A stretch of 54,854 nt of DNA from Candidatus Zambryskiibacteriota bacterium (GTDB taxonomy: Bacteria > Patescibacteriota > Minisyncoccia > Phycocordibacterales > Zambryskibacteraceae): assembly GCA_016177225.1 (NCBI GenBank), contig JACOVQ010000009.1:1-54854 (forward strand), in the 5' to 3' direction. The notes under the pieces were generated by a model. That model worked only from the letters and a program-made list of their open reading frames with translations. It made no database searches and was not told where the DNA came from. The stretch's first letter is position 1. Each line of letters starts with the position of its first letter. A program made the position numbers and the translations under genes. This document shows positions 15,872 to 52,562 of the stretch, one piece after another.

Positions 15872-15910
15872 AATCCCTTGCGATTTTAAGTATTTGCTTT
15901 GCCCAATCCT

Positions 15911-17461
15911 ATGAATAACGAACAACATAAATTTTTCCTCTACGCCCGCAAGTCCACGGATGTGGAAGATAAACAAGTGCGGTCTATTGAAGATCAGATC
16001 GCGGAATTACGCGCCTTTGCCAAACAAGAAAATCTGAATGTTATTGATGTTTTGATTGAAAAACAATCAGCCAAAATTCCGGGCCGTCCGATATTTGGCG
16101 AAATGTTAAAAAGGATTGAGGACGGCGAGGCCAATGGAATTTTGGCTTGGCACGCGGACAGGTTGGCGCGCAATTCTGTGGACGGCGGGCGTATCATTTA
16201 TCTTTTGGACACTGAAAAACTTGCGAGCTTGAAGTTTCCAACCCTATGGTTTGAAAATACGCCGCAGGGAAAATTTATGTTGAACATTGTATTTGGGCAA
16301 AGCAAATACTATGTGGATTCTCTTTCCGAAAACACGAAGCGCGGTTTGCGCCAAAAAGTGAAGCGCGGAGAATACCCCGGCCCCGCGCCCATCGGCTACA
16401 TCAACGACAGCCGCACAAAATCGGTGGTCGTAGACAGAAAGAAAGCAAAAATCATTCGCGGGGCCTTTGAGCTTTACGCCGAGGGCAATTCGCGGTTGGA
16501 GGATATTTCTAACTTTTTGGCGCAACGCGGGATATTCTCCCGCGGCGGAAAGAGAATCCACAAGACGAGGGCGACTTTTATCCTCTCCAATCCTTTTTAC
16601 ACTGGGTTATTCAAATATGGCGGTGAACTTCATGAAGGAAAATACGAGCCAATCATCGCAAAGAAAATTTTTGATAAAGTCCAAGAAGTTTTAAAGCAGA
16701 GAGGACGGCCGCACCATAAAACCAAATATGAGCCGCAAGATTATTGCGGGCTAATGAAATGCGGCACTTGCGGAATGTCCATAACTGGCGAATACAGGAT
16801 TAAGAAGCAGAAAAACGGAAATGTCCACGACTACATTTACTATCACTGCACGAAAAAGAACAAAGCGGTAAAATGTCCCGAATCCTGTATTCGCCAAGAG
16901 GAACTGGACAAACAAATTTCCTCTCTGCTTCAAAAATTTTCTTTGCGTTCGGATTGGGCGGAAAAATTGCTTGCTATGGCAGAAGCGGACAAAGAAAAAT
17001 CCACCCAATCTGTTTCTGCTTTTGTTCTTGAATCTCAAAATAAAATCCACGCCATTCAAACGAAGCTCCAGCGACTTCTTGACGGCTATTTAGAGCAAGA
17101 TATTGAACGCGAAATATACCGCAAACAAAAAACAAAACTTCTTTTAGAAAAGAAGTCGCTGGCCGAGAAAATGGCGCGGATTGAACAAAAGCAGAATGAT
17201 TGGCTCGAACCGATGAGAGAATGGATAAAAGTCGCTTCAAACCTCGTCAAAATCGCAAGGGATAGCAACCTTCAAGAGAAGAAGGTTGCTGCCAAAGAAA
17301 TCTTTGGCTCGAACCTGCGCTTGGCGAGCCGCGCCGTGCGCGGCGAGCCAGTGTTTCCATACCTTTCCGCTCTTCGTGCGGCCGAATCAATCGGCAAAAT
17401 TCCTGAAAGTTTAATTCTGGTGCGGGATGCAGGGGTCGAACCTGCGGCCTTCGCTGTGTAA
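15911..17461 (+). CDS. Large serine recombinase (resolvase + recombinase + zinc ribbon + coiled coil)
   Basis: YARKS catalytic motif, DRLARN, LSENTKRG, AP.GY, CGTCG...YYHC zinc ribbon. The last 11 codons are read from the tRNA-Val antisense strand. Confidence 0.95.
   Translation: MNNEQHKFFLYARKSTDVEDKQVRSIEDQIAELRAFAKQENLNVIDVLIEKQSAKIPGRPIFGEMLKRIEDGEANGILAWHADRLARNSVDGGRIIYLLDTEKLASLKFPTLWFENTPQGKFMLNIVFGQSKYYVDSLSENTKRGLRQKVKRGEYPGPAPIGYINDSRTKSVVVDRKKAKIIRGAFELYAEGNSRLEDISNFLAQRGIFSRGGKRIHKTRATFILSNPFYTGLFKYGGELHEGKYEPIIAKKIFDKVQEVLKQRGRPHHKTKYEPQDYCGLMKCGTCGMSITGEYRIKKQKNGNVHDYIYYHCTKKNKAVKCPESCIRQEELDKQISSLLQKFSLRSDWAEKLLAMAEADKEKSTQSVSAFVLESQNKIHAIQTKLQRLLDGYLEQDIEREIYRKQKTKLLLEKKSLAEKMARIEQKQNDWLEPMREWIKVASNLVKIARDSNLQEKKVAAKEIFGSNLRLASRAVRGEPVFPYLSALRAAESIGKIPESLILVRDAGVEPAAFAV
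17309..17424 (+). repeat. Right arm of the element; inverted repeat of 15756-15871
   Basis: 116 bp with a single synonymous mismatch (17371 vs 15809). Confidence 0.92.
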
Positions 17462-22357: not shown

Positions 22358-22789
22358 ATGGCAAAAAAAATTATCAAAGTACTCAAATTACAAATTCCGG
22401 GCGGCAAGGCGGTGCCGGGTCAACAGCTCGGACCGGTGCTCGGCGCGGCCGGTATTCCTATTGGCGATTTCGTCAAGCGTTTTAATGATGAGACTAAAGC
22501 GCGCGTAGGGGAGATTGTGCCGACGGCAGTAGAAGTTTTTGAAGACAAGACCTATAAGATGACCTATAAGACCGAACCGGCTTCAGCTCTTATTCTTAAA
22601 GCTTTAAATAAAGAAAAAGGTTCCGGTACTCCTAATACTTCCAAGATTGGTTCGCTGAACAAAACTCAATTGAAAGAAATTGCCGAAAAGAAAATGAGCG
22701 ACCTCAATACCAACGACATCGAAGCCGCTTCTAAAATCATCGCCGGTACCGCGCGTAGCATGGGGGTAGATGCGCAGTCTAGAGAATAG
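22358..22789 (+). CDS. rplK: 50S ribosomal protein L11
   Basis: KLQIPGGKA.P...LGPVLG, FN..T and IIAGTARSMG. Confidence 0.96.
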   Translation: MAKKIIKVLKLQIPGGKAVPGQQLGPVLGAAGIPIGDFVKRFNDETKARVGEIVPTAVEVFEDKTYKMTYKTEPASALILKALNKEKGSGTPNTSKIGSLNKTQLKEIAEKKMSDLNTNDIEAASKIIAGTARSMGVDAQSRE

Positions 22790-23441
22790 ATGCAATTCCC
22801 AGAATACTTTTAAGCTGACGACATTTATAAAAATTGTCAGACTCTTCCATGTTTACCAAAATGCAGTTTATTCCCAAGCCAGTCGGGACTTCGTAATCAG
22901 AACGAGGACGGTCGCCAATATATAAAAATTCTTCCGGAGTAAAATCCGGATACTTGAATAGCCAGAGTTTATAAGAAGTACCCAGTGATTTTGATCCATC
23001 GTCTGAGGTAATAATGTTGTTAAAGAGTGTTAACGGGATATTTAAGTGAACAAGTTTTGTTTTAGTATTTTTTTGATTTGAGCCGGTTATAACATCTAAC
23101 GAATATTTGCTTCCGAGCTTATTGAGTAAATCAATTAATTCCTGATTCGGCTTAAGAAACTGGGCAATATCGGCATTCTCCAACGCTTCTTGAACTGCGT
23201 TAGAAGCCTCTTCGGGAGGGAAGCCTAGTCGGATTAAGCTTGTGGTTCCGCCCAGTCCTTGCATGTGGTAAAGCTCTCTAAATTTGTTGGCAGCAGTGTC
23301 GATGTCGGTATTGAATTTCTTGGCAATTTTTCCGCAGATGTATTCTTGAATAGCTTTGTCAATCTTCGGAGACTTTGGGTAAAGAGTTTGGTCTAGGTCA
23401 AAACCAATAACTTTTATCTTCTTAAAATTTGTATCCGACAT
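22779..23441 (-). CDS. HAD-superfamily hydrolase (nucleotidase-like)
   Basis: Motif I FDLDQTLY, motif II ITGS, motif III K and motif IV IGDRPRSD. Confidence 0.85.
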   Translation of the reverse strand: MSDTNFKKIKVIGFDLDQTLYPKSPKIDKAIQEYICGKIAKKFNTDIDTAANKFRELYHMQGLGGTTSLIRLGFPPEEASNAVQEALENADIAQFLKPNQELIDLLNKLGSKYSLDVITGSNQKNTKTKLVHLNIPLTLFNNIITSDDGSKSLGTSYKLWLFKYPDFTPEEFLYIGDRPRSDYEVPTGLGINCILVNMEESDNFYKCRQLKSILGIASIL

Positions 23442-25830
23442 AGTAAAGTGAAAGGTCGCCCAATCCCACGTTTAGTTCTTTGGCTATTAAATGAGCAATG
23501 TAATTTCCCAGCTTGGTATCCTCGGCTTTATTCTTCAGAGAACGGTTTTGGAAAACGGCTGTGGCATAAACTTTTTTGCCGAAAACATTAGCCTGGAAAA
23601 ACACCATCTGGTCGGCTTGCGGGTCATCGCGGCCGGCATGATATTCCGACAACACGGTATTATTGTGCATCCCGCCTTTTGATTTAAGATAATCAACCAG
23701 TTTCTTGACCGTATTTACGCCCATATACTTCTCCAGTTTGTCTAGAGTTTTATTTTTAGGACGCTTCTCTTGAAAAATAATCTTTTGTATTGAATAAGCG
23801 ACAGCCCCTTCAGTACCCGGCTCTTTAACGTTATTGTCCAAAAGATATGGCCCGGAACTGACATCCCACTCTCCGTGCGGCTTAGAAGGTTCTCCCAATA
23901 TTTTTTTAGTCCGCTGTTCTTCAGTCAGCAAAAGAATATTAGCTCTATTGGAAAGCATATACATGTCGCCAGTTTCCAGTCTCAAATCTTTGGCGATTTT
24001 TGAAGTGTACGCGTCGAATAATCCGAACACGTTTTCCGGATAAGCGTTCACAGTATTATGCGCGCGGGCTATGTGGAATGAATGAAGCTTGTTGTTTAAA
24101 ATAAAGAAAATATCGTGAGTCAGGCATGGGTCATGGGTAAATTTGGTTTTGCCCGTATCATTGTCTATAAAAGTATCCATGTCTGTAGAGGGGTCAAATC
24201 TTTGGACTACCGCGGCTCGTTTAGGATTTTTTTTAAAAATTTCTACAGTTTTTTGCAGTTGGTCAAAACCAAAGTAAGCTCTAGTCCTCTGGCCATAAGA
24301 ATAAGTGCCGTCGTGGTCTAGCCGCAGAAGTTCTCGTTTATAGTTCTCTCTCATCAGAGGAGTATCTTGGTCGCCCTGACGATAAATAGCGGGCATTGTC
24401 TCAAGAGCCTTTTGCACATTCCTATAAATGGCGAGAACGGAGGCTGTTCTGGCTAAACCTTTCCAAGGGTCGCCATGTTCTTCGGTAATGCCTTGAGTAT
24501 AAATTTTCTGGAGTACTCCTTTATGGACAGATAAGAAATTATCTCCTTCGACTAAAATGCTTGGCAATACTTCGGTATTAATTTTAAAAATCGTAGCGAA
24601 ATCTTGGATGAACGAATAGCCAAGTGTTGCCGCCATAGCCGCTCTTGCAAGTTGAGTGCCAATATCCATCCTGTGCAGAATATCCATTTCATATTGCTCA
24701 AACCTATTCTCTCTAGCGAGTCTTTCGGCCATTACATACAAATTATCCGCCAAAAGCTCAAAGACTGATTCACAGACATCAAATGCCAAGCACATTACAG
24801 AGACTTTCCCGCCGCGATTACTGATTTTGTAGTAATAACGCTTATCCATCACCAACTTTATATTTGATTCAAGAGGGATTTCTTCTTTGCCGCTTATAGC
24901 ACTCGATATGACAAACGAGGGGAAAGAAATTCCGCTTGCTATCTCAGTGCCGACTCTGCCCAGTTCTGCGCCTAAGAGCAACTGGTCTATCGGAGAAATG
25001 GGCTTTTTATTCTTACCTAAGAATTTCATCAGCGAATAAGATAAAAGAAACGGGTCGTTGCTCTTTATAAAATAACTTTTAGGCCCGATTTTAATATCAA
25101 GGCGTATCAAGCCGTTATCGTCGGTTACTTTAAACGGCACAGCCAGTTTAATTTTCTTACCTTTAAGTTCTATCTTCGGAGGCTGGAGATGCTGGAAGTC
25201 TTTAGGGTCAAGCTCAACTTTCTCTTTTGGAGAAGTTGGAATGCTAATGAGCATCTCTAAAATGGAATTCAAAGAGTCATAATAAATTTTATCCTCGGAG
25301 TTTGTTTTTATGAGAAATGCGTGCAGTTCCGAAGGTATTTTGGGTTTGAGCCATTCCAAATATCTCGTCACAACCTCTCTGCTCTTCGGGTGTTTGCCCA
25401 TAAAGACTGGAATAACGGTAATCTCTTGGCGAAAAATATCAAAAATCTTTTTGGTAATAGAGGGATAATGGCTCGAGGCCGCTACGCCGCCTTTAATATA
25501 ATTGCCTTCCCGATTAGGCTCGAAGCCATCCATCAAAGCAATTAATAAATTGGTGCTTGGGGTAAATGTTAGGGATTCTTCCGAAAATAAAACCAGAAAC
25601 TTAAGCGTTGGATGAGCCAGAGCATTTACTATCATCCTCTCGCTTCCGTCGCGGCTGACTATCAGCGAGCCTAATACTGAAACATTGGGTCGGACAAGTT
25701 CTTTTATCTCGTTTAGGACTTGACCGGCGGCAGTGGTATTGGTACAAATGCCTATAAAACCACTTTTTCCTTCAGGGGGAATAGTCAGCATCGCTTCCAC
25801 TAGCGGGAAATAAGTTTTCATAGTTGCCAT
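23422..25830 (-). CDS. Multidomain protein: MtrA-like, DUF4346-like, thymidylate-synthase-like and degenerate TS-like domains
   Basis: N-terminal G.ERMIVNALAHPTLKFLVLFSEE..., middle H..DIG.QLARA..A..LG.SFIQD, TS motifs YSYGQR..FDQL, FDP, PC and N in AYPEN, and a second TS-like C-terminal fold without Cys. Confidence 0.7.
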   Translation of the reverse strand: MATMKTYFPLVEAMLTIPPEGKSGFIGICTNTTAAGQVLNEIKELVRPNVSVLGSLIVSRDGSERMIVNALAHPTLKFLVLFSEESLTFTPSTNLLIALMDGFEPNREGNYIKGGVAASSHYPSITKKIFDIFRQEITVIPVFMGKHPKSREVVTRYLEWLKPKIPSELHAFLIKTNSEDKIYYDSLNSILEMLISIPTSPKEKVELDPKDFQHLQPPKIELKGKKIKLAVPFKVTDDNGLIRLDIKIGPKSYFIKSNDPFLLSYSLMKFLGKNKKPISPIDQLLLGAELGRVGTEIASGISFPSFVISSAISGKEEIPLESNIKLVMDKRYYYKISNRGGKVSVMCLAFDVCESVFELLADNLYVMAERLARENRFEQYEMDILHRMDIGTQLARAAMAATLGYSFIQDFATIFKINTEVLPSILVEGDNFLSVHKGVLQKIYTQGITEEHGDPWKGLARTASVLAIYRNVQKALETMPAIYRQGDQDTPLMRENYKRELLRLDHDGTYSYGQRTRAYFGFDQLQKTVEIFKKNPKRAAVVQRFDPSTDMDTFIDNDTGKTKFTHDPCLTHDIFFILNNKLHSFHIARAHNTVNAYPENVFGLFDAYTSKIAKDLRLETGDMYMLSNRANILLLTEEQRTKKILGEPSKPHGEWDVSSGPYLLDNNVKEPGTEGAVAYSIQKIIFQEKRPKNKTLDKLEKYMGVNTVKKLVDYLKSKGGMHNNTVLSEYHAGRDDPQADQMVFFQANVFGKKVYATAVFQNRSLKNKAEDTKLGNYIAHLIAKELNVGLGDLSLYYVGYKF

Positions 25831-26690
25831 TTTTTGCTTGACCAGCTATCTGGGAGATACTCTGCTATGCTCCACTTTTTAAATTCTGAAGTTTCGCTTG
25901 CGAAACAATATAGATTGGGAGAAATATTTAGTTTTGAAGAGATTTCAGAAATAAATTGTCTGCAAATACCGCACATATTGCACGGAGAATCAGGATATTT
26001 AGTGGATACGACGCCAATGTCGATTATGTCTCGCTCGTTATCCATCAACGCGGATAAGATAGCTGTCATTTCGGAATGCAGATTGAGGCGTTTATCCGGG
26101 CTCGAATATTGCCCGGCATAATAAATATTTCCTTGGGAAGTATAAACAGCCGTTCCATACGAAGACGCACTGTCGTAAAGAGGAAAATTGCGGTTCAGTC
26201 CTAAAATGGCATATTCTTTAAGCCTCACGGATATTTCATCTGCACCGATTTTTATTTCCGCTCGGTTCGGAGAATACTTCTCTTTGATTTTTGAAATTGG
26301 AATCGGAGAAGGATTGTATAAAGGAAACACCAGTCTTACGTCTTTTGTTTCAAACAGAGCTTCTCCGTTGGTATTTACGATTTTGTATTTTAATGGCGCG
26401 CCTGTTCTTGCCGCATAATCAACCAATATCTTTATTACCACCGGAGAAACCAACGAACTGCCGTTTTCCGACATGGTCACGATTTCTTTGACAGGGAAAT
26501 CCGTTGAGCCGACGGAGAGGGCCAAAGCCGTTTGTTCCGAAGGAATATTCAAGAGATGAGTATCCGAACCAATCAGCGCTCCCAAATATTCCCGCTTTTC
26601 CGTTATGGCAATGGAACTTGTTCTTTCGATGCTTGTCGACTTCAGAATGCAGAGATTAAGGCCGGATTTAAGTTTTTCAATATGATTCAT
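25818..26690 (-). CDS. Two-domain cytidine-deaminase-like protein
   Basis: The C-terminal domain has HSE...PCNMCGICRQ zinc motifs. The N-terminal domain looks like a ligand-less copy (IPSEQTAL). Confidence 0.8.
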   Translation of the reverse strand: MNHIEKLKSGLNLCILKSTSIERTSSIAITEKREYLGALIGSDTHLLNIPSEQTALALSVGSTDFPVKEIVTMSENGSSLVSPVVIKILVDYAARTGAPLKYKIVNTNGEALFETKDVRLVFPLYNPSPIPISKIKEKYSPNRAEIKIGADEISVRLKEYAILGLNRNFPLYDSASSYGTAVYTSQGNIYYAGQYSSPDKRLNLHSEMTAILSALMDNERDIIDIGVVSTKYPDSPCNMCGICRQFISEISSKLNISPNLYCFASETSEFKKWSIAEYLPDSWSSKKWQL

Positions 26691-27592
26691 TAGAAAATTT
26701 CCGCGTTGGAACGCAGCTTGCTTACGATTAAACCAGCCGGCGCCCAGTCGTAATGAAGCGTTTTTTTCAGAAAGTCGCTAAAGAGATGAATTTTGTCCCT
26801 TTCCAGTCTAGGATACATTTTTTCCGATTGTTTGCTGGATAACCTTGTTGTCGGGTAAAAAGGCATGGGGAACGCATAATACGGTATAAGAGGGGAAGCA
26901 TTTTTACCTTCGACTAGAATGGCCGTTATCGGTTCGTTTAAATGCTCCAAAGCGTAATCTATGCGGTGCATTCCGTCGCAAACTATATAAAAATCTTGCT
27001 TCTTATTGTATTGAAGACCGTAGTTTATAAGCGGAGTATTGGAGTGAAAGATATCCAAGTGTTTAATAGCGCTTACCTCGTCTATGTAAAAATCTTTTAA
27101 ATATCGGTCGGCAATGTGGTGCAAATTATCATTGGCGTCTTTGACGTAAAAGTTGTTAAAAAGCTTCTTTAGTTTGTTTAAATCAATAAATCCCTTATTC
27201 AGTTCGTAAGAATGCTTCTCGATGATTGGAGGAATCATGTGAAATGTGCCGCGGTCTTTCCAGTCATATTCTATGCCGTATTGAAGTTTATGAACTCGTT
27301 TGTTGTCTTTGGCTAAAGCCTCGTCCACAGTGGAAATGATATTCAACTGGTTTAAATAAATCGTCGGTTGGGGAGAGAATAATGGAGCATAAACACTTCC
27401 TGTTTTTATAGTGGGAGAATGGCCAAGTTCTTTAGCCGGATAAACTTTGACCAGCGAGAATTGAGCTTTCTTGTAAGGTTTAATCTTTTCGCCGTCCTTG
27501 TTGTATAAACCTCTGAATTCAATACGTTTAAAAACTTCCGTCAGTTCATCAAAAGGAATAATTCGCTTGAGTTCAATAAGCCTTCCCGCCAT
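26690..27592 (-). CDS. ParB/Srx-like domain protein
   Basis: PPIIE and IVCDGMHRI..A motifs. Start placed at ATG 27592; TAATG overlap with the next gene. Confidence 0.55.
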   Translation of the reverse strand: MAGRLIELKRIIPFDELTEVFKRIEFRGLYNKDGEKIKPYKKAQFSLVKVYPAKELGHSPTIKTGSVYAPLFSPQPTIYLNQLNIISTVDEALAKDNKRVHKLQYGIEYDWKDRGTFHMIPPIIEKHSYELNKGFIDLNKLKKLFNNFYVKDANDNLHHIADRYLKDFYIDEVSAIKHLDIFHSNTPLINYGLQYNKKQDFYIVCDGMHRIDYALEHLNEPITAILVEGKNASPLIPYYAFPMPFYPTTRLSSKQSEKMYPRLERDKIHLFSDFLKKTLHYDWAPAGLIVSKLRSNAEIF

Positions 27593-27661
27593 AGATTGCT
27601 TCAGTATATAGAAATGGAGCGGCAAAACAAGATTATACTAGCTATGTTAATATAGCCCAAT

Positions 27662-28255
27662 ATGGCGAAACGAGATATAGACTTTTTGTTTGAAATTGGC
27701 TCGTTAAGAAAGGTTCCAAGAGCCTGGCAGCAGGTTTTAAATGGCAGAGTCCAAAACATTGCCGAACACCACTTTAGAGTAACCTTGATTGCCTGGACCA
27801 TTGCTATAGCCGAAAGAGCAGATGTCAATAAAGTTCTGCAAATTGCCCTTATACACGATATAGGAGAATCCAGAGCTGGTGACATTGCGTTTATGCATAG
27901 AGATTATGTGATTAGACACGAAGAGTTGGCTGAAGAACACGTCTTTCAAAATACTATTTTAGAAAAAGAAGCCGGGGTATTGTTGTCAGAATATAGCGAA
28001 AGAAAGACTTTGGAAGCCAAAATCGTGAAGGACGCAGATAATCTTGACGTGGATTTAGAGCTTAAAGAATTGGCTCAAATAGGCGACTCAGCTGCTATAG
28101 GTATGCAGAAAAATCACCGTCCTTTCGTAAGAACAATCAAGCTTTACACTAAAACCGCCAAAAAAATGTGGGACCAGATTCAAAAAACTGACCCTAACGC
28201 CTGGCATCAAGCGCTGTCAAATAAATGGATTAAGAATAAAAAGGGAGCGAAATAG
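27662..28255 (+). CDS. HD-domain phosphohydrolase (YfbR/5'-deoxynucleotidase-like)
   Basis: LRKVPR.W, NIAEHHFRV, ALIHDIGESRAGDI and VKDADNLD. Confidence 0.85.
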   Translation: MAKRDIDFLFEIGSLRKVPRAWQQVLNGRVQNIAEHHFRVTLIAWTIAIAERADVNKVLQIALIHDIGESRAGDIAFMHRDYVIRHEELAEEHVFQNTILEKEAGVLLSEYSERKTLEAKIVKDADNLDVDLELKELAQIGDSAAIGMQKNHRPFVRTIKLYTKTAKKMWDQIQKTDPNAWHQALSNKWIKNKKGAK

Positions 28256-29837: not shown

Positions 29838-32800
29838 ATGGCTGATAAATCTGAACGAGCCCAGAGAGAGGAGGAAATTCTCAAGTTCTGGAAAGAGAAC
29901 AAAATATTTGAGAAAAGTTTGGAGAAAAAATCTCCAAAGGGAGAATTCGTGTTTTATGATGGACCGCCTTTTGCCACCGGACTTCCTCACTATGGCCATA
30001 TTCTTCCTGGAACGATTAAAGATGTAATTCCACGCTACAAAACCATGTGTGGATATAGAGTCCCGCGCAGGTGGGGCTGGGATACGCACGGCCTGCCCAT
30101 AGAAAACCTCATAGAGCAGGAACTGGGACTTACAACAAAAAAAGATATTGAAAAGTTTGGTATCGCCGAATTCAACAAGCGTGCCAGAAACAGCGTTCTT
30201 CGTTTAGAGAAGGAGTGGAAAGAAATTATCCCTCGCACAGGACGATGGGTTGATATGGATAACGCTTATACCACAATGGATTCAAGTTATACCGAGTCTG
30301 TTTGGTGGTCTTTTAAAACTATGTTTGATAAAGGGTTGGTCTACCAAGGTTTTAAATCAATGCATCTCTGTCCAAGGTGCGAGACAACACTCTCGAATTT
30401 TGAGGTGAATCAGGGATACAAAGATATCACTGATATTTCAGTGTATGTGAAGTTTGAGCTTATAGACGAACTGAGAACATTTTTCCTCATATGGACAACC
30501 ACGCCATGGACACTTCCGGGCAATGCTGCTTTAGCTGTCAATCCAAAAGAACTTTATGTAAAAGCCAGAAAGGGAGAAGAGAACTTTATTCTCATGAAGA
30601 TCTTAGCAGATAAGGTTCTTAAGGAAAATTATAAAATTCTGGAAGAATTTTCCGGAGAAAAACTTGTCGGGAAAAGATACAAAACTCTTTTTGATTACTA
30701 CATCACAGAATCGCAGGTTTATGGCGCGGACTTTATAACGACCGAGGATGGTACTGGTATTGTCCATATTGCCCCAGCATTCGGCGAAGATGATTACAGC
30801 CTATCTCTTAAAGAAGGTCTGCAGTTTATTCAGCATGTTGGCACGGATGGGAGATTCAAGATTGAAGTGAAAGATTTTGCAGGTAGAATGGCGAAACCGA
30901 AAGATGACCACCAGTCTACTGACGTTGAAATCATAAAATATTTAGCTCACAAAAACCTGTTGTTTGCCAAGGAAAAAATTACCCACAGCTACCCTCACTG
31001 CTGGCGATGCGACACGCCGCTTTTAAATTACGCCTCCTCATCCTGGTTTGTGAAAGTAACAGAAATAAAAGATAAGCTCATTGCCGCAAATAGGAAAGTT
31101 AAGTGGCTACCGGAAGATATTCGTGACGGGCGTTTTGGCAAATGGCTCGAAGGCTCTCGAGACTGGGCTGTATCCCGCTCTCGCTTTTGGGGCACTCCTC
31201 TGCCTGTGTGGCAAAATTCAGATGAGTCTAAAAAATTTGTAGTTGATTCTATCGAGATACTTAAAAAATATGTAAAAAAGTCTGGCAACAAATATTTTGT
31301 AATGAGACATGGCGAGGCAATGAATAACGCCAGACATGAATTAGATTTAACTGGTGATCCGGATAACCATCTTACAGAAATAGGAAAAGCAGAAGTCAAA
31401 AAAGTAGATGTAAAAAACTTCGATCTAATATTTTCCTCGCCCTTTTTACGCACTAGAGAAACCGCAGAGCTTCTGGGTAAAGATTTTGCAATTGACAATA
31501 GGCTGCATGAAGTTGGTCCAAGTGAAGACCCGATAAATGTGCACCGAAGGATGGGCGAGTTTATTTTTGAGGTTGATAAGAAATATCAAAACAAAAATGT
31601 TTTAATCATTTCTCATGGTTATCCGATCTGGAGTCTCTTTAATCTTGCCAGTAAGAGCAAGTACAACAGGTTAGAACAGCCAAAAACTGGAGAAATATGG
31701 TTGTTAGACTTCGCGCCATATCCTCATGATGAAAATTACGAGCTTGATTTACACCGACCGTACATTGATGAAATTGTTTTAGAAAAAGATGGAGAAGAGT
31801 ACAGAAGAGTACCTGAAGTCTTCGACACTTGGTATGACTCGGGCTCCGTGCCATTCGCATCGCGAAAGGCAAAAGATTTCAGACCCGCTGACTTTATTGC
31901 AGAAGGGCTCGACCAGACCCGTGGCTGGTTTTACACATTGATTGTTCTCGGTACAGCACTTTTTGGAGCTTCACCGTATAGGCAAGTAGTGGTAAACGGT
32001 CTGGTGCTTGCCGAGGATGGTAAGAAGATGAGCAAGCGTTTGAAAAATTACCCTGAGCTCACTGATGTACTCAACAAATTTGGCGGAGATGCACTACGAT
32101 ACTACCTGGTTTCTTCTCCGGCTGTGCGGGCGGAAGATCTGGCCTTTTCAGAAAAAGGCCTTGATGAAGTAGTGAAGAAAAATATTAATCGTCTGGAGAA
32201 TATAGTAAGTTTCTATAAACTGTACAACAAGGATGAAAACGGTACTTTAATATCTAATCATATCCTCGATCGATGGATTGATAAAAAGCTTGAAAAGCTC
32301 ATACTGGATGTTACTGAAAGTCTTGAAAATTACGAGCTCGATCGCGCCAGCCGCCCGACAGCGGAGTTTATCGATGATTTGTCTACATGGTACTTACGCC
32401 GTTCTCGCACTAGGCCAGAGGCTTTGCCAAAATTGAGGGAAGTTCTTATTGTGTTCTCCAAAATTATTGCACCGTTCATGCCATTTATCGCTGAAGATAT
32501 TTACCAGAAGTTAAGAAAATCTGGTGATCTGGAAAGCGTGCATCTATGCGAATGGCCAAAAGTTCGGACAAGATTAAACCTTGTCAAATTCTTAAGGTTT
32601 AACCTTGGGAAAGACATAGTTATAGAAAACATGGCGGAAACTCGCCGGATTGTTTCTCTTGCTCTCGAAGCACGGGCGAAAGCGAATATCAAAGTGAGGC
32701 AACCACTTTCAAAATTACAAATTACAAATGACAAATTACAAAAAGAATATTTAGAAATTATTAGAGACGAAATAAATGTTAAGGAAGTAATTGTAAATAA

Positions 32801-33023
32801 AAAGCTTAAAGGAGAGCTTTTGTTGGATACAAACCTAACTCCAGAGCTTATTGAAGAGGGGAAGTTGCGTGACGCCATTCGTAATATTCAAGATTGGCGC
32901 AAAGAAAAAGGATTTAAGCCCGGAGAGAAAGTTAAATACGAAACAAATGACGAATTTCTCCTCAAGCACAAAGCAGAAATTGAAAGAATAACTAACGTTG
33001 AGCTACCAAATATACACAACTAA
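29838..33023 (+). CDS. ileS: Isoleucine--tRNA ligase (type 2) with inserted histidine-phosphatase domain
   Basis: DGPPFATGLPHYGH, GWDTHGLP, WTTTPWTLP, EGLDQTRGWF and KMSKR; the insert has RHG, SSPF.R and SHG. Confidence 0.96.
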   Translation: MADKSERAQREEEILKFWKENKIFEKSLEKKSPKGEFVFYDGPPFATGLPHYGHILPGTIKDVIPRYKTMCGYRVPRRWGWDTHGLPIENLIEQELGLTTKKDIEKFGIAEFNKRARNSVLRLEKEWKEIIPRTGRWVDMDNAYTTMDSSYTESVWWSFKTMFDKGLVYQGFKSMHLCPRCETTLSNFEVNQGYKDITDISVYVKFELIDELRTFFLIWTTTPWTLPGNAALAVNPKELYVKARKGEENFILMKILADKVLKENYKILEEFSGEKLVGKRYKTLFDYYITESQVYGADFITTEDGTGIVHIAPAFGEDDYSLSLKEGLQFIQHVGTDGRFKIEVKDFAGRMAKPKDDHQSTDVEIIKYLAHKNLLFAKEKITHSYPHCWRCDTPLLNYASSSWFVKVTEIKDKLIAANRKVKWLPEDIRDGRFGKWLEGSRDWAVSRSRFWGTPLPVWQNSDESKKFVVDSIEILKKYVKKSGNKYFVMRHGEAMNNARHELDLTGDPDNHLTEIGKAEVKKVDVKNFDLIFSSPFLRTRETAELLGKDFAIDNRLHEVGPSEDPINVHRRMGEFIFEVDKKYQNKNVLIISHGYPIWSLFNLASKSKYNRLEQPKTGEIWLLDFAPYPHDENYELDLHRPYIDEIVLEKDGEEYRRVPEVFDTWYDSGSVPFASRKAKDFRPADFIAEGLDQTRGWFYTLIVLGTALFGASPYRQVVVNGLVLAEDGKKMSKRLKNYPELTDVLNKFGGDALRYYLVSSPAVRAEDLAFSEKGLDEVVKKNINRLENIVSFYKLYNKDENGTLISNHILDRWIDKKLEKLILDVTESLENYELDRASRPTAEFIDDLSTWYLRRSRTRPEALPKLREVLIVFSKIIAPFMPFIAEDIYQKLRKSGDLESVHLCEWPKVRTRLNLVKFLRFNLGKDIVIENMAETRRIVSLALEARAKANIKVRQPLSKLQITNDKLQKEYLEIIRDEINVKEVIVNKKLKGELLLDTNLTPELIEEGKLRDAIRNIQDWRKEKGFKPGEKVKYETNDEFLLKHKAEIERITNVELPNIHN

Positions 33024-51452: not shown

Positions 51453-52562
51453 ATGAGATTTTTCGATAAAACTTTCTTTAAGTTTCTTTTTGGCTTTCTG
51501 GTTTTAATAGCGCTGGGCGTTGGAGTGATGGTTTATGCTAAAGCTGTTTTCGCCGACTCTCTTGTAAATATAAATACAGCGAATCTTACAGAGCTTAAAA
51601 CTCTTAACGGTATAGGAGATGTAAAAGGACAAGCCATTATTGATTACCGCACAAGCCACGGTGCGTTTGCCGCAATTGAGGATATTCAAAATGTTACTGG
51701 CATTGGTCCGGCCACTTTTAATAACATAAAAAATTTCATAACCGTAGGCACTGCTGTTGCGCCGGCAGCAGAAACAAATGCCAGTACCAACGCTTCTGTC
51801 GGCAATACATCCTCAGTTCATTATAGTTCAACTCCCGTAACAAATATAAATAAAAGAGTGGAAGCGTACGTCAGCGCAGGTTCGGATCGAATCAGTACTG
51901 CCGGCAGTCCCATGGAGTTTGCAGCTGAAACTGATTTCGATTACACCAAGTCGAGCATGTTTAACTGGAACTTTGGCGATGGCAGCACGGGAACAGGCGA
52001 TGTTCTTACCCACACCTACGAATATCCCGGAGAGTACACGGTTGTGCTTAACACCTGGCTACCCAAAGGCCAATCCGTTTCCAGAGTAAATGTCAAAATA
52101 ATAGAGCCGGAGATAGTTGTTATTTCGGCGTCGGAAGAAAAGATAGAATTGAAAAATAATTCAAAATCCGAAGTAAATTTATATGGCAGGGCATTGTGGA
52201 GCGGAGGAAGAACCTTTCTTTTTCCCAAAGATACCATCATCAGAGCGGGACAAAATATCACTCTCAGCTCTAGGGTCACGGAACTTAAACCCAACAGCCC
52301 ATTTGATGTTCAAATAGCAGTAGTGGGGGACACTGAACAGCCGAAAATGATGGCAAAAATCGAAGAAGAAAAAACAAAACAAATTGCTAGTATAAAAAAT
52401 CAAATTACTTCTCTACAGCAGCAAATGGCAAGTCTTCTAACTCCAGCCTTAGCGGTTCAACCGCCAAGCGAGGAAGTTGCCGAAATTTCTGAAATTCCGC
52501 CTCAGACAGCCTCGGTAAAAGTCGGGTGGCTTCAACTTATTAAAAAATTCTTTCTAAGATAA
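51453..52562 (+). CDS. ComEA-like helix-hairpin-helix DNA receptor fused to a PKD domain
   Basis: VNINTA...EL.TL.GIG..K..AII.YR..G.F...EDI..V.GIG, then WNFGDG and H.Y.YPG.Y.V.L. Confidence 0.85.
   Translation: MRFFDKTFFKFLFGFLVLIALGVGVMVYAKAVFADSLVNINTANLTELKTLNGIGDVKGQAIIDYRTSHGAFAAIEDIQNVTGIGPATFNNIKNFITVGTAVAPAAETNASTNASVGNTSSVHYSSTPVTNINKRVEAYVSAGSDRISTAGSPMEFAAETDFDYTKSSMFNWNFGDGSTGTGDVLTHTYEYPGEYTVVLNTWLPKGQSVSRVNVKIIEPEIVVISASEEKIELKNNSKSEVNLYGRALWSGGRTFLFPKDTIIRAGQNITLSSRVTELKPNSPFDVQIAVVGDTEQPKMMAKIEEEKTKQIASIKNQITSLQQQMASLLTPALAVQPPSEEVAEISEIPPQTASVKVGWLQLIKKFFLR

Follow-up and report, generated by a model that had tools for sequence, protein, structure and literature searches.

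Two ways of making thymidylate are known, through ThyA and through ThyX, both of them drug targets and textbook markers of DNA metabolism. How might bacteria that carry neither make their dTMP? The question is raised by a locus in a 54,854-nucleotide stretch of DNA (henceforth the window) from a Candidatus Zambryskiibacteriota bacterium, which is contig 2 of a 15-contig, 455-kb genome (G000) of 95.6% completeness. Four overlapping minus-strand genes encode a ParB/sulfiredoxin (Srx)-like protein, a two-domain cytidine deaminase (CDA), an 802-residue fusion containing a relative of thymidylate synthase (TS) and a HAD phosphatase, while a divergent fifth gene encodes an HD hydrolase (Table 1). 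We consider it fairly probable that the four genes are a housekeeping thymidylate-supply cassette of some ultrasmall bacteria of the candidate phyla radiation (CPR, Patescibacteria), standing in for ThyA or ThyX, dCMP deaminase and dihydrofolate reductase (DHFR). The novelty would lie in the architecture and the partner enzymes of a thymidylate module that belongs to the TS family. In the searchable literature (supplements excluded), we found no description of the cassette, of the long fusion or of a shorter fusion family related to it.

A first-pass annotation had read all five genes as one cluster for modifying or depleting pyrimidine nucleotides, inserted between rplK and argS. The five open reading frames (ORFs) are all in the ORF list at the positions given to them, and the folds named for their products agree with Pfam, NCBIfam, fold and sequence searches, the ParB/Srx signal being weak but exclusive. 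We compared 63 loci (the window, 7 from genome contigs, 1 from a sampled genome and 54 from metagenomes), which were not de-duplicated and include several near-identical pairs. Where room was left for it, the CDA gene was present at 44 of 44 loci, the ParB-like gene at 37 of 37 and the HAD gene at 53 of 54, the sole miss being L080, the most distant homologue; the genes thus co-occur elsewhere. The order ParB-CDA-TS-HAD holds throughout, except at L062, with median spacings of 2, -4 and -4 nt. Two of the partners are also found fused to the TS fusion: the CDA to its N-terminus in P0244 (37% identity over 269 aa, 5e-54), and the HAD phosphatase to its C-terminus in P0247 and L043. The grouping of the four minus-strand genes is far beyond chance. 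This is not so for the HD gene, homologues of which recur at two of the 63 loci only (the window and L030). It is a lineage-specific neighbour outside the conserved core, so that five genes are too many. The word inserted is also misleading, since 12 of the 63 loci share the context of rplK/nusG on one side and argS/ileS on the other. These 12 fall in one large clade of the fusion tree, and both the Peribacteria/Gracilibacteria-type loci and a clade of 44-48% identity have other flanks. From the shared context and its confinement to one clade, we conclude that the cassette is old and mostly vertically inherited in this lineage, and not a recent insertion.

The recurrent neighbours of the cassette were found by clustering flanking ORFs and then annotating those that recur. 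They comprise a dUTPase gene at 14 loci (mostly 18-130 bp upstream of the ParB-like gene and divergent from it), a serine hydroxymethyltransferase (SHMT) gene at 10 (six within 30-140 bp), a NUDIX-like gene directly after the HAD gene at 12 and a FolD gene at 2; no glycosyltransferase or other tailoring gene was among them. Two further observations concern the surroundings of the cassette at other loci. A reverse-transcriptase gene (RVT_1, E 1.5e-23; positions 6901-7926 of L031) lies about 3 kb from the cassette at four loci, at three of them downstream past nusG, and in a single case (L025, G027:C13, 8230-8946) a gene for a CofE-like F420-0:gamma-glutamyl ligase adjoins the HAD gene.

The genomes that carry the cassette are poor in known thymidylate synthases: none of nine has ThyA and one has ThyX. 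Among 201 evenly sampled genomes of the phylum, PF00303 (ThyA) was matched in 103 and PF02511 (ThyX) in 75, both in 4, either in 174 and neither in 27, the last including both cassette genomes of the sample; the overlap was read from two tables, the tallies include one genome flagged as unpublished (G154), and no formal statistics are given because related genomes are not independent. The cassette itself is rare, occurring in 2 of the 201 phylum genomes and in 1 of 151 genomes of the class, G000 itself. Five cassette genomes were examined further for genes of nucleotide metabolism. DHFR, which accompanies canonical ThyA in 79 of 81 genomes of the phylum sample, was found in none of the five. 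Nor was any PF00383 deaminase other than the cassette's own CDA; a strong PF00383 match occurs in 117 of the 201 sampled genomes, often beside ThyA and Tmk. Thymidine kinase (TK) was present in one of the five and deoxynucleoside kinase (dNK) over the cut-off in none, so that no known kinase is to hand for deoxyuridine. SHMT is encoded in four (G000 being the exception), class I/II ribonucleotide reductase (RNR) in three and class III RNR in none. We rejected Tmk as a discriminator: it is present in two of the five cassette genomes and absent from three, but it is also absent from 58 of the 201 sampled genomes (present in 143).

Taken together, the dUTPase, SHMT and FolD neighbours, the scarcity of ThyA and ThyX in cassette genomes and the vertical descent at a housekeeping position favour dTMP as the product. 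The first-pass annotation had named an unusual dTMP route as one of its options, and it is this option that the evidence supports. A second option, a modified pyrimidine nucleotide, is weighed below together with the active site from which it draws its strength.

What kind of enzyme is the fusion at the centre of the cassette? A HMMER scan of 1.84 billion representatives returned only about eight full-length fusion clusters at 50% identity, a few distant relatives of 786-906 aa and a large family of proteins of 460-600 aa with the architecture MtrA + Thymidylat_synt + PterinBD-DUF4346 (henceforth the short family). The two are linked at 99.8% (hhalign) over the MtrA-like and TS parts, and residues ~150-425 of the long form, which hold both of its DUF4346-like domains, are extra relative to the short family; on sequence grounds, the 802-residue fusion is derived from the short family. 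The AlphaFold2 model of the fusion (pLDDT 85.8, pTM 0.80) and profile comparisons resolve, in order, an MtrA-like domain, a pair of DUF4346-like domains, a TS domain that has the catalytic Cys and a degenerate second TS-like core. Simpler searches see little of this: a Pfam scan gave no match at E<=0.1, hence none to PF00303, and a single-sequence search of the PDB with the TS domain failed to reach ThyA. NCBIfam recognises a methanogen-type TS at residues 426-630 (TIGR03283, E 2.4e-17, but at 63 bits under the curated cut-off of 174.55) and an MtrA-like stretch at residues 40-142.

The fold of the live TS domain is that of thymidylate synthases and their relatives. Its best match is the flavin-dependent dCMP hydroxylase 9iqc (Z 19.2; Foldseek E 3e-9), followed by MilA (Z 17.3), ThyA 3ix6 (Z 16.8; 195 residues aligned, rmsd 2.8) and T4 dCMP hydroxymethylase (Z 13.2). 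The N-terminal domain has the MtrA fold (Z 16.3, rmsd 2.0, 149 of 159 residues), with one change: the MtrA segment EVQGH, whose His is the cobalt ligand, aligns with SLTF in the fusion, where the position of the His is taken by the nearly invariant Phe89. Against the DUF4346 region of the short family, hhalign scored the first, divergent DUF4346-like domain at 88.7% (E 2.6e-6) and the second at 97.8% (E 6.8e-13), and PF14251 matches the relative P0244. The C-terminal core was recognised only against the TS profile of the short family (hhalign 97.5%, E 8e-12, 94 columns). It has no Pro-Cys nucleophile, and the same comparisons found no similarity to DUF4346 or MtrA and none to the fusion's own TS domain (3%). 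This second core probably takes the place of the partner subunit in the ThyA dimer, which would make the fusion a single-chain pseudo-dimer with one working active site.

We mapped ThyA positions onto the fusion through a profile alignment to the short family, using E. coli ThyA numbering, which agrees with passages of PMC13326640. Three catalytic residues are kept in 50 of 50 fusion sequences: C569, R589 and N600, corresponding to the nucleophilic C146, to R166 and to the uracil-selecting N177. Other parts of the site are changed. D169, H207 and Y209 of ThyA are replaced by N592, N631 and L633 in 50 of 50 sequences and L143 by H566 in 49 of 50, a His and an Asp immediately precede the catalytic Pro-Cys, and the equivalent of Ser167 is Ala. 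In ThyA, the R126/R127 pair extends into the phosphate site of the partner subunit. The live domain has only a degenerate version of this pair: S, T, N or A stands at position 537, Arg being absent from its four commonest residues across 50 sequences, and 35 of the 50 have Arg at position 538. In the dead core, an invariant H722-N723-N724 stands at the place of R126-R127. The fusion thus has the catalytic Cys, the Arg and the uracil-selecting Asn of the family, and lacks Asp169, His207/Tyr209 and the Arg126'/Arg127' pair.

Several findings weigh against a thymidylate cassette of the kind that we propose. The fusion is without the folate-binding Asp, the 3'-OH-contacting His and Tyr and an R126-type Arg, and it has a His at the water-excluding L143 position. 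According to PMC13326640 (NAR 2026), flavin-dependent 5-hydroxy-dCMP synthases are recognised by D169N and hydroxymethylases by an acidic residue at L143, which the polar His-Asp before the catalytic Cys of the fusion recalls. The best structural match of the TS domain is itself a flavin enzyme, 9iqc. With D169N, the other changes in the site and this match, a plain folate-dependent dUMP methylase is not assured. In addition, a phosphatase fused to the TS fusion is awkward, since it would undo the dTMP product; the fusion with HAD fits better with HAD and CDA delivering deoxyuridine to a TS that acts at the nucleoside level, or with a product released as nucleoside. One cassette genome, the fragmented metagenome-assembled genome G348, has a ThyX match. 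In G000, searches found no SHMT, FolD, dUTPase, RNR of class I, II or III, TK, dNK, Tmk or DHFR. The lack of SHMT, FolD, dUTPase, RNR and Tmk leaves this genome with no recognised one-carbon source and no recognised steps beyond dTMP. The organism probably lives on scavenged deoxynucleotides; apparently it either imports them or relies on enzymes that have gone unrecognised. Finally, the arguments for the kinase role that we propose for the ParB-like protein (see below) are the precedent of its fold, matched weakly (best Z 4.6), and the lack of any other kinase.

The altered active site is the main argument for a different product. In this account, which we regard as unlikely, the cassette would make a C5-modified uracil nucleotide or nucleoside (for example 5-hydroxymethyl- or 5-hydroxy-deoxyuridine) in place of dTMP. 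Water or oxygen, not hydride, would be added by the TS-like domain, and the product would either be set free as a nucleoside by the fused HAD or enter DNA as a modified nucleotide that replaces thymidylate. The invariant D169N, H207N and Y209L, the His-Asp directly before the Pro-Cys nucleophile, and the two marks given in PMC13326640 all fit such chemistry. So do the Z of 19.2 for 9iqc versus 16.8 for ThyA, the HAD fused to the C-terminus in P0247 and L043, and the absence of DHFR from five of five genomes, which is expected if no dihydrofolate is formed. However, a modified product would leave eight of nine cassette genomes without thymidylate synthesis, with TK found in only one of five, and no more than about 2.5 separates 9iqc, MilA and ThyA in Z score. 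The recurrent neighbours include no glycosyltransferase or tailoring gene, searches of phage sequences found no relatives (see below), and the cassette is housekeeping-like and vertically inherited. The comparison with the phage 5-hydroxy-dCMP synthases (AfhB of HY126 and RB69 gp48; 9iqc/9iqu) cuts both ways. They share D169N with the fusion and are the best structural match to its TS domain, yet they have N177D (cytosine) where the fusion keeps Asn (uracil), and they are single-domain proteins of about 220 aa encoded in DNA-hypermodification clusters, unlike the fusion. The modified pyrimidine nucleotide of the first-pass annotation thus finds backing in the replaced folate-binding Asp and sugar-contacting His and Tyr, but the dTMP route is favoured over it.

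The same site bears on the form in which the substrate is bound. The fusion might methylate deoxyuridine instead of dUMP, with CDA and HAD supplying deoxyuridine and the ParB/Srx-fold protein acting afterwards as a thymidine kinase. In that arrangement, CDA and HAD, both of which are found fused to the fusion, would act directly upstream of it, and the loss of the phosphate-site Arg pair (invariant H722-N723-N724 in the dead core, a degenerate pair in the live domain) and the Ala at the Ser167 equivalent would make sense. Yet the invariant R589 (R166) and R461 (possibly R21) could still hold a phosphate, the argument from the dead core takes it to pack as the partner subunit of ThyA does, and a dUTPase neighbour yields dUMP directly. 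To our knowledge, no TS-family enzyme acts on a nucleoside, which also counts against this account, and we think it quite improbable.

For the favoured thymidylate cassette, the parts can be assembled into a predicted pathway. The genes present, their folds, conservation, fusions and neighbours and the complementary distribution are observations; each substrate, the sequence of the reactions, the activity as a kinase and the cofactor are predictions. Its core enzyme would be the single-chain TS relative, whose live domain has the nucleophilic Cys, the R166-type Arg and the uracil-selecting Asn. The MtrA-like domain and the two DUF4346 domains may deal with the one-carbon or reducing cofactor and thereby make DHFR unnecessary, and the methylene unit would come from SHMT and FolD where these are encoded. 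dUMP could be supplied in two ways. One would start from dUTP, through the neighbouring dUTPase where the gene is present. The other would be a deoxycytidine pathway at the nucleoside level: dCMP would be dephosphorylated to deoxycytidine by the HAD phosphatase (and, in G000, also by the HD nucleotidase), deoxycytidine deaminated to deoxyuridine by the cassette CDA, and deoxyuridine converted to dUMP by the ParB/sulfiredoxin-fold protein as kinase. The NUDIX-like gene, together with dUTPase, would feed dUMP and dCMP.

The deaminase and phosphatase keep the motifs of their families. The C-terminal domain of the CDA aligns to B. subtilis CDA 1ux1 (2e-6), including H-S-E, PCxxC and the C-terminal LPxxW tail, and its zinc and catalytic residues H205, E207, C240 and C243 are invariant in 29 sequences. 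The N-terminal half (residues ~1-160) is a degenerate copy with a PSEQTAL segment, in our reading a likely match to the CDA zinc motif, in which Pro takes the zinc-ligand position and the Glu is kept. Compared with curated equivalogs, the CDA reaches at best 36 bits, under a cut-off of 275; the CDA-type C-terminal tail aligns. The HAD protein is of subfamily IA type (HAD_2, E 1.4e-10, 42 bits versus a cut-off of 23.8), and at least 95% of 45 sequences have motifs I-IV intact (D15, D17, T119, K151, D177 and D182). It resembles pyrimidine 5'-nucleotidases weakly (TIGR01993, 2.3e-8; YjjG, 9.3e-8; both far under cut-off). The lineage-specific HD protein (HD_3, E 5.8e-23, 82 bits versus 22.5) is related to 1xx7 (4.7e-13), HDDC2 (4.8e-11) and YfbR (1.1e-3), and is predicted to be a YfbR/HDDC2-type 5'-(deoxy)nucleotidase.

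The least expected member of the cassette is the ParB-like protein. It has 230 homologues, of which the 120 listed are all about 300 aa long; a C-D-G-x-H-R motif (C205, D206, G207, H209 and R210) is invariant in 44 sequences. Parb-CE is matched at E 1.3e-4, with 22.4 bits versus a cut-off of 23, and an Atlas search returned "ParB CE domain" clusters only. No match to any solved structure was found by a sequence search of the PDB, and Foldseek against the PDB and a fold search of the BFVD with the model each gave nothing at E<=0.001. The AlphaFold2 model (pLDDT 83) has a core with large beta-rich insertions, and of 48,161 PDB representatives, nine match it at Z>=2, all of the ParB/Srx fold and all weakly (Z 3.2-4.6). 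Sulfiredoxin is the best of them (Z 4.6), and the nine also include two free serine kinases, SerK and SbnI. Like SerK, SbnI and sulfiredoxin, the protein has a conserved G-x-H-R-type nucleotide motif and is without a helix-turn-helix (HTH) or C-terminal dimerisation domain, in so far as Pfam, NCBIfam and fold searches, which do not prove an absence, can tell; it differs from them in its large beta-rich core insertions and in having no sequence-level similarity to any solved structure. According to PMC12704722, SerK, SbnI and Srx are ParB-fold proteins with a kinase activity that uses ATP or ADP. By analogy, we propose that the kinase that the cassette needs for (deoxy)nucleosides or nucleotides may be the ParB-like protein. 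A complex prediction for CDA and TS residues 420-802 with the ParB-like partner gave a score of 0.00, which is neither support for nor evidence against binding. A PNAS 2025 survey of the ParB-CTPase fold does not mention thymidylate, deaminase or Patescibacteria in its main text; its supplements may list the family.

The proposed route has precedents. In T. brucei, which is without dCMP deaminase, CDA, thymidine kinase and an HD-type 5'-nucleotidase are essential for dTMP synthesis (PMC5098729), and E. coli has a YfbR-dependent deoxycytidine pathway (PMC8475336, citing Weiss 2007). Like these pathways (YfbR-Cdd-Tdk in E. coli), the cassette combines a 5'-nucleotidase, a CDA and a TS, and as in T. 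brucei there is no dCMP deaminase. It differs in being one conserved operon with TS fusions and in the lack of a thymidine kinase in four of five genomes. The ParB/Srx-fold protein stands where the deoxycytidine pathway needs a kinase and is a candidate substitute only.

The short family offers a second comparison. Its members (~460-600 aa; PF04208 + PF00303 + PF14251) keep all ThyA catalytic residues, and 14 of the 16 sampled CPR genomes that carry one have no other TS-type gene, ThyX included; among the 16 genomes there is one weak DHFR match, in G001. The family occurs at loci L014, L017, L019, L020, L023 and L024 (genomes G016, G001, G146, G100, G142 and G097, respectively) and in 10 further sampled genomes. 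We checked the architecture in six of the 16 and found TS + DUF4346 in six of six and MtrA in five of six. In G056, the gene adjoins Tmk. The short family looks like an undescribed DHFR-independent form of thymidylate synthase. It shares with the 802-residue fusion the homologous MtrA-like and TS parts, DUF4346 and an occurrence in CPR genomes without ThyX and DHFR. The differences are that the short family keeps D169, H207, Y209 and R126/R127 and has its DUF4346 after the TS domain, whereas in the fusion two DUF4346 domains precede the TS domain, a dead TS-like core is added and the active site is changed. ParB-like, CDA and HAD companions were absent from the short-family loci seen, no systematic search having been made. 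The absence of DHFR from genomes of both fused TS families suggests that the MtrA-like and DUF4346 domains replace its function or that no dihydrofolate is made. ThyA and the fusion, in turn, share the TS fold, the Pro-Cys nucleophile, the R166-type Arg and the N177-type Asn, and likely the same cellular role, but the fusion differs by D169N, H207N and Y209L, by its predicted single-chain pseudo-dimer, by three extra N-terminal domains and by its occurrence in genomes without DHFR.

How far might this go? A bold possibility, which we hold only tentatively and think doubtful, is that the fusion is a third mechanistic kind of TS (a pseudo-dimer with a changed pterin site that makes no dihydrofolate) and its partner the first nucleoside kinase of the ParB/sulfiredoxin fold; such a TS would methylate a uracil deoxynucleoside or nucleotide with the help of the fused MtrA-like and DUF4346 domains. 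An even bolder variant would have a modified uracil replace thymine in DNA. The genomes of ultrasmall bacteria examined here sort into four almost exclusive solutions: ThyA with DHFR, ThyX, the short MtrA-TS-DUF4346 protein, or the 802-residue fusion with its three partners. If the thymidylate cassette that we favour is real, its enzyme architecture makes DHFR dispensable, the ParB/sulfiredoxin fold gains a new enzymatic role, and the deoxycytidine pathway is seen to exist in a form encoded by an operon; the cassette would also explain how organisms without ribonucleotide reductase rebalance scavenged deoxynucleotides.

Deaminases, nucleotidases and ParB-like proteins are also component types of some defence systems, and the first-pass annotation had pointed to dCTP deamination as an antiphage strategy. 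A system that removes dCTP or dCMP on infection would fit the rarity of the cassette, which is found in 2 of 201 phylum genomes and 1 of 151 of the class. Several findings argue against it: PADLOC-DB yielded no family for any of the five proteins at E<=0.01, the ParB-like protein has no relatives in 50,697 phage records, and the same records gave only TS-domain matches for the fusion. No full-length relative of the fusion was found in IMG/VR, and PHROGs gave weak TS and HD matches only. The context is not island-like. The cassette descends vertically at a stable position between ribosomal and tRNA-synthetase genes, its neighbours are dUTPase, SHMT and FolD and not defence genes, and its distribution is complementary to that of ThyA and ThyX. 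We therefore set the antiphage idea aside as highly improbable.

Table 1. Positions of the cassette genes, of the domains of their products and of other genes in the window
Feature	Position	Strand	Length or residues	Basis or remark
HAD phosphatase gene	22779-23441	minus	220 aa	ORF list
TS fusion gene	23422-25830	minus	802 aa	ORF list
MtrA-like domain	25219-25812	minus	aa 7-204	fold match 5laa_B
First, divergent DUF4346-like domain	24922-25146	minus	aa 229-303	hhalign
Second DUF4346 domain	24601-24858	minus	aa 325-410	hhalign
TS-fold domain with predicted active-site residues	23869-24567	minus	aa 422-654	fold and profile
Degenerate second TS-like core	23425-23868	minus	aa 655-802	hhalign
Two-domain CDA gene	25818-26690	minus	290 aa	ORF list
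CDA catalytic domain	25833-26165		aa 176-286
ParB/Srx-like ORF	26690-27625	minus	311 aa	from TTG
ParB/Srx-like gene as called in databases	26690-27592	minus	300 aa	start ATG at 27592
HD hydrolase gene	27662-28255	plus	197 aa	ORF list; divergent from operon
rplK	22358-22789
IleRS gene	29838-33023		1061 aa	His_Phos_1 insert at aa 487-558
Large serine recombinase gene	15899-17461		520 aa	Resolvase + Recombinase + zinc ribbon
PilB-like T2SSE ATPase gene	298-1968
ComEA-like gene	51453-52562			HHH_3 + PKD

The overlaps between successive genes of the minus-strand four are 20, 13 and 1 nt long in the window, and the end of the HAD gene shares 11 nt with the end of the convergent rplK. The database form of the TS fusion begins at Met4, giving 799 aa. 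Genes for SecE, NusG and L11 flank the cassette on one side and those for ArgRS and IleRS on the other, and base composition is unremarkable across the region. A promoter and terminator scan of the region was uninformative, with fewer promoter-like sites (6) than in shuffled sequence (13.8). The stretch is present, as contigs, in four groundwater DNA runs of one study, and the sequencing runs listed for it include no RNA run and offer neither raw nor long reads.

Other features of the window are recorded for their own sake. No rplA follows rplK, and Ribosomal_L1 was not found anywhere in the 95.6%-complete genome; the cassette occupies the exact place that rplA normally takes after rplK. L1 is known to be missing from a subgroup of Parcubacteria. 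In IleRS, a histidine-phosphatase domain (His_Phos_1, E 1.4e-15) with an RHGE motif is inserted in the middle of the catalytic core. The large serine recombinase gene lies among housekeeping genes and may mark an integrated element. The window also encodes a PilB-like ATPase and a ComEA-like protein, which fit DNA uptake as a source of nucleotides.

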